DNA of 64,000 nucleotides. Origin: Longimicrobiales bacterium. GTDB taxonomy: Bacteria; Gemmatimonadota; Gemmatimonadetes; Longimicrobiales; Gaopeijiaceae. Both the position numbers and the translations under genes were made by a program. Positions 3,913 through 6,009 of this stretch are shown in pieces (the stretch's first letter is position 1; each line of letters opens with the position of its first letter). The notes beneath the pieces are model-generated. The model saw nothing but the letters and a program-made list of their open reading frames with translations. It did no database searches and was not told where the DNA came from. Where the stretch lies: assembly GCA_963664435.2 (NCBI GenBank), contig CAXXKM010000003.1, positions 544,001 to 608,000 of the forward strand, in the 5' to 3' direction.

Positions 3913-3944
3913 TTGCGCACGATAACTGGATTTATCGCGCGCTA
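3913..3944. repeat. lox-like recombination site 1 (13-bp arms, 6-bp asymmetric core)
   Basis: TTGCGCACGATAA-CTGGAT-TTATCGCGCGCTA; 30/32 identical to the reverse complement of site 2. Confidence 0.85.
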
Positions 3945-3951
3945 CGGCGAT

Positions 3952-3978
3952 GTAATCGCTTCGCTATCACGCGATTAC
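3952..3978. promoter_or_regulatory. 8-bp inverted repeat, candidate operator or accessory site
   Basis: GTAATCGC-N11-GCGATTAC between lox-like site 1 and the predicted -10 box. Confidence 0.45.
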
Positions 3979-3979
3979 G

Positions 3980-4008
3980 AGCTTATGCGACCGCGGTCTC
4001 CCGCGCAA
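3980..4008 (-). promoter_or_regulatory. Putative sigma70 promoter facing outward through site 1
   Basis: Minus strand TTGCGC-N17-TAAGCT. Confidence 0.55.
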
Positions 4009-4089
4009 TGGTCTGAGAGAGAGGTCCGGGAGCAGCGGTCATGCCGACCGTTGGCCGTATGTTCCTGAACCCCGATGACGAGGCGATCT

Positions 4090-5073
4090 TCAGCGCTGCT
4101 GCCTGGCGGCCAATTGTGCCGCGCCGCTGCGTCGCGCCAGCAATCGCTCGCCGTAGCGTTGGACCATCCGCGCACTCTTCCAGCGCCCGGCCTGCAGGAT
4201 CGCCGGCAACTCGATTCCGCAGGCAATCATGTCTTGGACCGGCCCCACGCGCGTGCTGTGCCCCGCCAAGGCGTCCACAGTGTCGGCGGGAAGCCCGGCA
4301 CGCAGGGCCATTGACTTGTAGATGCGGGGCACCTGACTCGGCGGGAGTTGCTCCCCCACCGAGCCGTCCTTGCGCACCGAACGGAACAACCGCCCCTCAG
4401 CGGTCCCGCTGCGGCCGAGCCATATCTTGACGATCCTCACCGTGTCGCGCGCGAGAAAGAGCATGGCGCCTGCCCCCTCGGGATCCGTCTTGCTCGTTCG
4501 CACGAGCAGCGTTGCGGAACCATCGGCTTCCTCCACGAGGTCGGACACGTCCAGCGACACCAGCTCGGATCGCCGCAAGAGCGTGTCGTAGGCCACGGCT
4601 AGCAGCGCGCGATTCCGGGCGTCGATCAGCCGCTTTCCCGCCGCCTTGATCAGTCGGTTCCGGAGCGGCCAAGTGAGCCCCGTCACCTGAGTTTGTCTGC
4701 GCCCCCGGTTCCGGTACATCCGCTGGAGGGCCAGCTTCACGGCCGTGCTGTCCGCCGGGTTCGGCAGGCGTAGCGTCTTGTGGAGCGTAGCGATGCTGGA
4801 GACGTAGCGGCGCACGGTGGCCGGAGCCCTGCTGCTGCCCATGTCGTCGATGAAGGCGATCAAGGTGTTGGCGCTCGCGGGCACGGCCACCGTGCCGTCC
4901 TGCTCGCACCAGACGAGGAATACCCGCAGGTCGGCCCTCAGCGCCCGTTCCGTGTTGCGGCTGAAGGCGCTGCTAACCGTCTCGAAGAAGCGAGCTAACT
5001 GCTCCGCCACCTCCGCGTCTGATTCTGCACCGGTCAAGGCATCTATATGTGGTGTTGTGTCTGCATCTGGCAT
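4090..5073 (-). CDS. Cre-like tyrosine recombinase (327 aa)
   Basis: SAM-like N-terminus (SRNTERALRADL), LLRRSEL, SKTDPEG, GHSTRVG, GRWKS, QRYG; GGAGG RBS upstream of the ATG at 5073. Confidence 0.9.
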   Translation of the reverse strand: MPDADTTPHIDALTGAESDAEVAEQLARFFETVSSAFSRNTERALRADLRVFLVWCEQDGTVAVPASANTLIAFIDDMGSSRAPATVRRYVSSIATLHKTLRLPNPADSTAVKLALQRMYRNRGRRQTQVTGLTWPLRNRLIKAAGKRLIDARNRALLAVAYDTLLRRSELVSLDVSDLVEEADGSATLLVRTSKTDPEGAGAMLFLARDTVRIVKIWLGRSGTAEGRLFRSVRKDGSVGEQLPPSQVPRIYKSMALRAGLPADTVDALAGHSTRVGPVQDMIACGIELPAILQAGRWKSARMVQRYGERLLARRSGAAQLAARQQR

Positions 5074-5110
5074 CAAGTGGCCTCCGGTTCGGTCGCAAGG
5101 ACCGCGCGTC

Positions 5111-5142
5111 TTGCGCGCGATAAATCCAGTTATCGCGCGCAA
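5111..5142. repeat. lox-like recombination site 2 (perfect 13-bp arms)
   Basis: TTGCGCGCGATAA-ATCCAG-TTATCGCGCGCAA; core inverted relative to site 1. Confidence 0.85.
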
Positions 5143-6009
5143 AACTCCCTGCGAAACAGGAGGCGAACTCGAGGATGAACGAGGATGAACATGATTGGTC
5201 AAAGGACTAAGCTGGATGGATTGGCGCGCCTCGCGCGTCCGTGGCAGGCGACACTCGCCCTGACCGTCGCCCTGCTGGCGGGCACCGGGACTGCTGCGGC
5301 ACAGGACACCATGCCCCCGGGGCTGGAGTACGCGAGGATCGACGGGACGACGCTGACACTCCGATTCGATAAGCCGGTGGGGTTAGGGATGCCCAAGCAG
5401 GTCGTGCACGGGTTCACGGTCGCCGGGATCTCGGACAGCGCCAGCGTGCATCCGACTGAGATGAAGTGGAACGCCTGGACGGCCACACTCGAATTCGACA
5501 CGCGCGCGGAACCGGGGCAGACAGTCACGGTGAGCTACGATCCGGACGAGGTCCCCAACTCGCCCCCCACTCCGGAGCACCCGAATGGGCTGCCCGCGGC
5601 CCTGGTCTACACCGACGGCACCTTGGTGCCGAAGTTCTCCGACGCGCCGGTGACCATCCTGGCTCCGAAGCCCGCGACGGACCTCACGTTTTCGAACCAG
5701 TTCGGGTTGACAGTCGATCTGTCCTGGACGCCGCCCGTCCATCCCGAGGGCGTGGTCGCCAAGGTGGTAGTTGACGTGTCGTCAGACTCGCTTTTCTACA
5801 CGATTGGACGTTGGGCAATCCATGCGGACTCGACCTCGATAACAATGATGATACAACACGGATGGGGTTACACTGATTACTTCCGCGTCCGGTACTTAAC
5901 CGACAACTATCATGCGGATTCCGAGGTCGCGACGTGGACGAGTACGCAGGAGGGTCTGAAAGCGCCCACCGGCTTGACGGCGTCGAACGCGACGCAGACA
6001 ACGGTCGAC

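Follow-up and report, generated by a model that had tools for sequence, protein, structure and literature searches.

In the hin/hix switch of Salmonella, the invertase gene lies inside its own segment, with an outward-facing promoter behind the gene and the regulated gene outside one of the sites; Hin belongs to the serine recombinases and depends on an enhancer and on Fis. The fimS switch of Escherichia coli (FimB/FimE), the RecV switches of Clostridioides difficile and the invertons of Bacteroides each comprise an inverted-repeat segment upstream of a surface-structure gene and employ a tyrosine recombinase; their segments are 150–400 bp long, the recombinase gene lies outside, the repeats of 9–30 bp are not lox-like, and the enzymes are not Cre-type. 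The shufflon of R64 (Rci) is a tyrosine-recombinase inversion system on a conjugative plasmid that affects a mating-linked surface adhesin, with many sfx sites that reshuffle the 3′ coding end of pilV. Here we describe a locus in a 64,000-nucleotide stretch of a Longimicrobiales genome (Gemmatimonadota; contig CAXXKM010000003.1, positions 544,001–608,000; hereafter the window), in which a gene for a Cre-type tyrosine recombinase lies between two inverted lox-like sites, beside a gene for a surface protein (the adhesin). We consider it highly likely that recombinase and sites together form a self-contained inversion module.

A Cre-type recombinase gene between inverted lox-like sites

Site 1 (3913–3944; TTGCGCACGATAA-CTGGAT-TTATCGCGCGCTA) lies on the 3′ side of the recombinase gene, and site 2 (5111–5142; TTGCGCGCGATAA-ATCCAG-TTATCGCGCGCAA) in the interval from which the recombinase and adhesin genes diverge. 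Both are 32-bp dyads with 13-bp arms and an asymmetric core; comparison of one with the reverse complement of the other gives two mismatches in 32 positions, with the cores inverted. As a pair bounding a segment, they rank first among the inverted repeats of the region (33 nt, 94% complementary), with 1170 nt separating the arms. A degenerate site pattern matched four times in the 64-kb window (the two sites on both strands) against 0.00 matches expected from 100 dinucleotide-preserving shuffles; thus, the two sites are real and non-random. Both also fit a 13-8-13 division (34 bp) like that of loxP, with GATA adjoining the spacer. Like lox targets, they combine inverted arms of about 13 bp with an asymmetric spacer of 6–8 bp close to a gene. 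PMC10250229 names a GATA motif beside the spacer as common to active Cre-type targets, and lists as search criteria arms of 13–15 bp, an 8-bp spacer and a distance of at most 1 kb from a gene.

The sole gene between the sites encodes a recombinase of 327 amino acids (aa), its ATG 37 nt inside site 2 (coordinates of all features are collected in Table 1). A profile built from 18 family members matched Cre chains with an E value of 5.8e-39, profile positions 10–315 of 327 aligning with residues 17–337 of the 349 in Cre; the next family in this search was XerD (1e-06). Residues R168, K195, H272, R275, W298 and Y307 are invariant in all 18 homologues and align with R173, K201, H289, R292, W315 and Y324 of Cre, within its LLR, KT, GHSxRVG, GxW and Y motifs. 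By these alignments, the recombinase is a true Cre homologue over its full length. The genome (4.51 Mb in three contigs) carries three copies of the module—copy A in the window, copy B on contig 1, and copy C 625 kb from copy A on the opposite strand—and the recombinase gene is intact in all three. An earlier note on this DNA, made from the sequence alone, had called the enzyme Cre-like, had described two inverted 32-bp sites with 13-bp arms, asymmetric cores and 30/32 identity, and had placed no gene but that of the recombinase, together with a promoter, between them; the enzyme assignment is upheld by the full-length profile match and the catalytic R-K-H-R-W-Y set, and the description of the sites and of the gene content between them is confirmed.

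Relatives: site covariation, neighbours and orientation

Relatives of the recombinase were collected from species-representative genomes (33 loci) and metagenome contigs (35 loci), at 38–98% identity. Those with named records are metagenome-assembled genomes (MAGs) of Gemmatimonadota, Acidobacteriota (Vicinamibacterales, Terriglobia, Bryobacterales) and Gammaproteobacteria, and the sequencing runs that contain the window DNA are labelled as sponge metagenomes or as two coded organisms. A strict search for site pairs covered 67 loci, comprising 64 fetched loci and copies A, B and C. A pair flanks the recombinase gene in 44 of them, and in 43 of these 44 the two cores are exact reverse complements. 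Eleven cores were seen (CTGGAT, CGGGAT, CTGGAA, CTGTCG, CTGTAA, CTGCCT, CTGGCT, TTGCAT, CTGTAT, TGGGAG and CGGGAA), the last at L020, the single mismatched locus. The arms vary with recombinase lineage (GCGCGCGATAA, GCTCGCGATAA, GCTCCCGATAA, GCTCTCGATTA and GGTTGATAA), and four loci fetched later (L081, L082, L085 and L086) have clear pairs with a different arm type. Covariation is seen even within the genome of the window: copies A and B carry CTGGAT/ATCCAG, and copy C carries CGGGAT/ATCCCG, the same T-to-G change in both sites. Matched changes in asymmetric cores 1.2 kb apart are explained by the homology that strand exchange by tyrosine recombinases requires, and would not be expected of mere binding sites. 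The pattern thus supports the view that the two sites evolve like a cognate recombining pair in inverted orientation.

The neighbourhood of the module is likewise recurrent. An open reading frame (ORF) of at least 500 aa with a third-position GC content (GC3) of at least 0.76, starting no more than 200 bp outside the 5′-side site and divergent from the recombinase gene, is present in 27 of 43 loci with sites; one of these, at L011, encodes a cytochrome c peroxidase and not an adhesin. Such an ORF lies past the 3′-side site in two of the 43, namely L037 (a kinase) and L061 (an adhesin). The surface proteins that were scanned, from several phyla, are very large and contain fn3, cadherin-like, Calx-beta, LRR, SRCR, Ig, PKD and SWM domains. 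Judged from these loci, the neighbour that is constant across phyla is a very large surface-protein gene on the 5′ side, and the placement of such a gene directly outside one site, as had been claimed for the window, is the layout of most relatives. At the L037 and L019 modules, a gene for VirB4 follows the adhesin start at a distance of 8–9 kb on the same strand. On gene content, the association with adhesins is general, and that with conjugation holds in some lineages, including that of the window.

Flanks of relatives were compared by blastn, since tblastx gave too much noise in DNA so rich in GC and in repeats. In L037, a Longimicrobiales MAG, the gene order is divergent adhesin gene, site, recombinase gene, site, and a co-directional gene for a GAF-PAS histidine kinase/response regulator; this order recurs in L081, L084, L085, L086 and L087. 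In L059 the kinase gene is co-directional past the 3′ side, and no adhesin ORF was found on the other side. The module of L061, a 5.5-kb metagenome contig, is 87.8% identical to that of L037, its closest relative. Beyond its 3′-side site, L061 aligns to the reverse complement of the 5′-side flank of L037, including AAGGAGG, the spacer and the adhesin ATG GCC, so that its adhesin gene, encoding an SWM/Calx-beta surface protein at the right of the contig, lies beyond the opposite site relative to L037 and is co-directional with the recombinase gene. About 30 nt past the other site of L061 align with the 3′-side flank of L037; further left, on the opposite strand, lies what is left of the kinase N-terminus (34 residues at 53% identity, E 2e-06), truncated by integrase-encoding DNA. 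In the L037 genome, the parts of the L061 junction to either side of the site match opposite strands, at positions 1.1 kb from each other. On this alignment, the segment between the sites is inverted relative to both of its neighbours at least once, in L061 versus L037. The earlier note had suggested looking for flipped copies in related genomes, and this is the one that emerged.

No second flipped example was found among 200 genomes of the order of L037, of which the L037 genome alone was informative because adhesin starts diverge too fast. A search of 301 genomes (300 of the phylum of the window, and G000) with the window module gave collinear matches wherever both parts matched. Contigs of the four sequencing runs across site 1 (record 18) and across site 2 (records 13 and 22) have the same orientation as the reference.

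Four further features of the relatives are recorded as observations in their own right. First, at L018 (2054–7037) the same LuxR-type regulator flank stands on both sides of the module in inverted order, without an adhesin gene; this flank is up to 99% identical to the 3′-side flank of L019 on the same contig. A reciprocal copy with adhesin genes on both sides was sought in the L018 genome and not found, and only two recombinase copies are present there; the double flank may reflect exchange between copies or a duplication. Second, an isolated third half-site, TTATCGCGAG, which extends to GTTATCGCGAGCAAA in the majority of cases, shows almost no variation among 17 aligned loci (L013, L015, L019 and 14 other Acidobacteriota), about 110 nt past the recombinase stop and about 190 nt inside the 3′-side site. 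It is absent from the window, and may be an accessory binding site that biases direction. Third, in the more distant homologues L063, L066 and L067 (with the duplicates L064 and L065; 57–59% identity) a GAF-PAS kinase gene is divergent from the recombinase gene and no site pair was detected, which may represent a decayed or a different arrangement. Fourth, CGTGAC motifs are repeated 30–110 nt past the 3′-side site, upstream of the kinase gene, in L037, L081 and L085; these may be binding sites for the response-regulator output domain fused to the kinase.

The adhesin gene, candidate promoters and the proposed switch

The adhesin start lies by site 2, just outside a recombination site, where a regulated gene would be expected. 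Its ATG (5185) is 42 nt outside the site in copy A and 32 nt in copies B and C, and its AGGAGG is about 20 nt from the site. A 10-bp tandem duplication (5170–5189) is particular to copy A and moves the strong ribosome-binding site away from the in-frame adhesin ATG; in the spanning contigs of all four sequencing runs it is read as 'left out 10'. The intact orthologues of copies B and C encode 858 and 859 aa, respectively, and the adhesin gene of copy A is a gene for about 858 aa that is split at 6013 by an element of the IS630 family and resumes in an ORF at 7173–8897. The transposase ORF of this element spans 6010–7089, and identical 1140-bp copies are present elsewhere in the genome. The earlier note had placed an FN3 protein gene 42 bp beyond site 2: the start at 5185 is right, and the ORF it described (5185–6027) is merely the 5′ fragment of the longer gene. 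The switch in copy A is without an intact first target gene; because the adhesin is broken there, any switching in this copy would act only on downstream genes.

Since the recombinase ATG as well as the adhesin ATG is so close to site 2, there is little room for an independent adhesin promoter; because such a promoter scarcely fits, adhesin transcription must begin in or beyond site 2. Turning to possible sources, the spacer between the recombinase stop and site 1 holds the pair TTGCGC-N17-TAAGCT, which the earlier note had taken for an outward promoter; the hexamers and their 17-nt spacing are present as described. In copy C and in L009–L011 another outward candidate lies about 25 bp nearer the site, TTGAC(G/A)-N17 followed by TACAAT, TAGGAT, TCCGAT or TCAACT. 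The window has lost the TTGAC-type −35 element (it reads CGTAAT) and carries TTGCGC-N17-TAAGCT about 25 bp further in. The corresponding spacers of relatives hold closer-matching outward motifs, of which candidates from several lineages are listed in Table 1. Sigma-70-like pairs matching at least 8 of 12 positions occur in the spacer on the outward strand in 11 of 38 loci and on the inward strand in 3 of 38, counts that are not independent as the loci are related; the control gave 7 in 1088 windows inside recombinase genes. Downstream in the outward direction, the region of a terminator-like hairpin past site 1 aligns among copies A and C and L009, and its T-run is not kept in copy B. A 46-codon ORF over site 1 (ATG at 3879, with a conserved start region) was considered and dropped: inversion would not join it to the recombinase frame.

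We propose that the Cre-type recombinase recombines the inverted lox-like sites around its own gene and would thereby flip the 1.17-kb segment between them, which carries the recombinase transcription unit and probably, in the spacer downstream of that gene, an outward promoter. As assembled, transcription from this promoter would leave through site 1 and enter the non-coding 255 bp at the end of the element; an inversion would direct it across site 2 into the adhesin gene and on into the type IV secretion operon, which has the same orientation. The assembled state would thus be OFF for the adhesin and secretion operon. This model, put forward in the earlier note for the adhesin gene, seems to us the likeliest because its layout of invertase gene, promoter, site and target gene matches that of Salmonella hin; we lean towards the full promoter switch, in which inversion turns the promoter onto the adhesin and secretion operon, with less assurance than towards the inversion module itself. 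For this organism, we infer inversion, the promoter and which of the two states is ON. A rare ON state would fit the usual silence of conjugative elements and the skewed counts of orientation.

Several findings weigh against this proposal. Inversion was not seen in the genome of the window, whose three copies all have the same orientation, and the contigs of the four runs contain reference junctions and no strand-switching joint, although contigs miss rare forms. Support for recombination of the sites is comparative and indirect, coming from core covariation and from L061; if the switch is active, one state is strongly favoured. L061 is the only flipped locus, a single contig from a different strain, and a misassembly or an old, fixed inversion is possible; bearing on the former, a 32-bp repeat is shorter than normal reads. 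A strict site pair is lacking in 23 of the 67 loci. A relaxed search recovered weaker inverted repeats flanking the recombinase gene in L017, L031, L033, L036, L051/L052 and L059, further clear pairs came only from the four later loci (L081, L082, L085 and L086), and there is no pair in L026, L027, L047, L056, L060 and L063–L067; L068–L076 are short or distant loci. The TTGCGC-N17-TAAGCT pair matches the consensus at 6 of 12 positions, a promoter scan of 3500–5400 found no site, and the hexamers are not conserved in copy C or in L009–L011. Finally, the L013 genome has a single VirB4 match (46% identity), and all four of its modules lie away from it; a conjugative element is not a constant setting of the module.

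The inversion could also be real and have an output other than a flipped adhesin promoter, acting through a co-transcription partner of the recombinase, transcriptional interference or the placement of a terminator. The co-directional GAF-PAS kinase gene just past the 3′-side site in L037, L059, L081 and L084–L087 would suit such an output, as would the hairpin past site 1 in the window, with consensus matching as the one line of support for the promoter. However, the 3′-side flank is non-coding in the window and in L009–L011, and it is the 5′-side adhesin gene that persists as a neighbour across phyla; we judge this alternative unlikely.

The three module copies are 93–95% identical, like the element around them (92–96%), whereas the IS630 copies are 100% identical. 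This argues against recent independent transposition, and hence against a reading of the module as a minimal mobile element, made up of a tyrosine-recombinase gene and its terminal inverted repeats, that targets the starts of adhesin genes for insertion. In its favour, the module resembles an insertion sequence (IS) in having one enzyme gene between 32-bp inverted ends, is present in two to four copies per genome, and is found in several phyla with varying neighbours, including L018, which has the LuxR-type flank on both sides and no adhesin gene. Yet the module keeps a fixed orientation and distance to the adhesin start, simple tyrosine recombination between two inverted sites cannot release a circle, and neither a target duplication nor an empty site was seen, which makes this reading improbable.

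A role in maintaining the conjugative element, either by multimer resolution as Cre/loxP provides for the P1 plasmid or by integration, with inversion incidental, has in its favour that the natural role of Cre is resolution and that the module lies 255 bp from the end of an element that carries type IV secretion genes. We nevertheless regard it as very improbable: resolution needs one site per element, whereas 44 loci retain two full inverted sites; an integrase of the element's own is encoded at its other end; and the modules of the L013 genome lack a nearby VirB4 gene. That the sites are only operators repressing divergent promoters, or that the module is an inactive relic, is hardly credible, for although site 2 covers most of the 111-bp divergent intergenic region and all copies have one orientation, the matched changes in asymmetric cores reflect a requirement of strand exchange and not of binding, all three copies encode an intact recombinase with the catalytic residues, and L061 is flipped.

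The host element and comparison with known systems

The three modules belong to a repeated unit of about 21 kb, 92–96% identical among its copies, which in the window begins at about 3658 (about 255 bp left of site 1) and ends at about 39646. The adhesin, secretion and integrase genes are all on the plus strand. Mismatches in 3660–3912 relative to the other copies and L009–L011 have no three-base periodicity that would point to coding potential left of site 1, and Rfam gave no match in 3300–5600. No relaxase family, tRNA gene or att-type direct repeat was found at the element or its ends, which are placed approximately from the copies. From its gene content, the repeat is probably an integrative, and probably conjugative, element.

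Table 1. Features of the module and its host element in the window (positions are those of the window), and candidate outward promoter motifs in related loci.
Feature	Position	Strand	Evidence or remark
Non-coding left end of repeated element, before site 1	3658–3912	.	homology start among three copies
Terminator-like hairpin and T-run, about 85 bp past site 1 in the outward direction	3814–3829	−	only terminator hit; 0.7 expected by chance, weak
Lox-like site 1, core CTGGAT	3913–3944	.	pattern and inverted-repeat search, locus comparison
Spacer (145 bp) from recombinase stop to site 1; candidate −35 TTGCGC 4008–4003, −10 TAAGCT 3985–3980	3945–4089	−	6/12 consensus
Cre-type tyrosine recombinase gene, 327 aa, GGAGG ribosome-binding site upstream	4090–5073	−	PF00589 7e-15
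Lox-like site 2, core ATCCAG	5111–5142	.	pattern and inverted-repeat search, locus comparison
10-bp tandem duplication (GAGGATGAAC twice) at adhesin start	5170–5189	+	absent in copies B and C
Adhesin 5′ fragment (signal peptide, SWM_repeat, fn3-like)	5185–6012	+	PF13753 3e-09
IS630-family insertion sequence within adhesin gene	6013–7146	−	PF13358 (DDE_3) 2.4e-21; 23-nt terminal inverted repeats
Adhesin 3′ fragment	7147–8897	+	50–72% identity to L009 and L010 adhesins
AlpA-like regulator, then VirB2, VirB3, VirB4, VirB9, VirB10 and one further ORF	9570–16166	+ (adhesin strand)	Pfam
Island of about 11.8 kb in copy A: McrBC, methyltransferase, P4-type integrase	15901–27721	.	absent from copy C position; Pfam
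VirB6, VirB8, coupling protein, VirB11, ArdC	28027–35195	+	Pfam
Tyrosine integrase of the element, near its right end	38372–39535	+	PF00589 3.8e-17
Outward motif, L010: TTGACG-N17-TACAAT			
Outward motif, L011: TTGACG-N17-TAGGAT			
Outward motif, L013, L014 and L041: TTGCGG-N18-TAGAAT			
Outward motif, L037, L061 and L084: TTGAC(G/A)-N17-CAAC(T/C)T			
Outward motif, L081, L085 and L086: TTGG(A/T)C-N17-TATCGT			

Other features of the element and its surroundings were also noted. The island inside the secretion operon, found in copy A only, encodes McrBC (AAA_5 and McrBC domains), a methyltransferase and a PAPS-reductase-like protein, with its P4-type integrase gene at 26327–27547. A class 3 lipase gene (36512–37930, minus strand; PF01764 2.1e-26) opposes the direction of the rest of the element. 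Beyond the right end, 39664–43505 encodes a Thoeris pair (ThsA, Macro domain 1.1e-50; ThsB, TIR 6.1e-18) and a type I restriction specificity subunit, which together make up a small defence cluster beside the element. To the left of the element, copies A and C differ at 3 of 348 nt in 3313–3660, against 25 mismatches in 253 nt just inside it; from this, the two copies seem to lie in a second, younger repeat.

If active, the switch would provide a simple on/off genetic mechanism for 'eukaryotic-like' surface proteins that are thought to mediate contact between sponge and symbiont, as well as a DNA-level gate on conjugative transfer, and each lineage would offer a ready recombinase/target pair, with its own arms and core, of the kind sought by genome engineers. 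More broadly, and as a tentative suggestion that may well not hold, horizontally shared, self-flipping switches of the Cre type could gate giant eukaryotic-like adhesins in sponge-associated Gemmatimonadota, Acidobacteriota and Gammaproteobacteria and, on elements like that of the window, the whole conjugation operon. Were this so, a small subpopulation would switch on host contact and DNA transfer by inversion and not by a regulator circuit, and the family would supply naturally occurring orthogonal Cre/lox pairs, with no fewer than 11 cores and five arm types.

Among described systems, Cre/loxP of phage P1, Dre/rox, Vika/vox and the tyrosine-recombinase set of PMC10250229 share with the window enzyme full-length homology and the catalytic R-K-H-R-W-Y set. 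The targets are alike in their 13-bp inverted arms, an asymmetric 8-bp spacer with a 6-bp variable core, GATA, and a position beside the gene. However, those pairs have one site nearby, whereas the window module has two full sites bracketing the gene; because these are in inverted order, inversion is expected in place of resolution. The hosts differ as well: the known pairs come from phages and plasmids, whereas the window module, with a recombinase activity predicted from homology, lies on a chromosomal integrative element of an uncultured Gemmatimonadota. In the literature, surveyed mostly at the level of listings, there is no description of a Cre-type enzyme inside its own invertible segment, nor is there one in the available part of PMC10250229.

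The architecture of the module is that of hin/hix, the promoter being probable; the enzyme, in contrast, is a Cre-type tyrosine recombinase, and no enhancer is known. With fimS, the RecV switches and the Bacteroides invertons, the module shares an inverted-repeat segment beside a surface-protein gene and a tyrosine recombinase, and it departs from them in the position of the recombinase gene inside its own segment, in its lox-like sites and in its Cre-type enzyme. With the R64 shufflon, it has in common the class of enzyme, a place on an element that is here probably conjugative, and a surface adhesin, which in R64 is linked to mating. In place of multiple sites and alternative coding ends, each module has only two sites, with a non-coding flank past site 1, such that no coding exchange would occur and the 5′ end of the adhesin gene would be affected. 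Invertible switches as such are already well known; what is new here is the flipped copy, the covariation of cores within one genome, the probable conjugative-element context and the recurrent outward promoter-like motifs.

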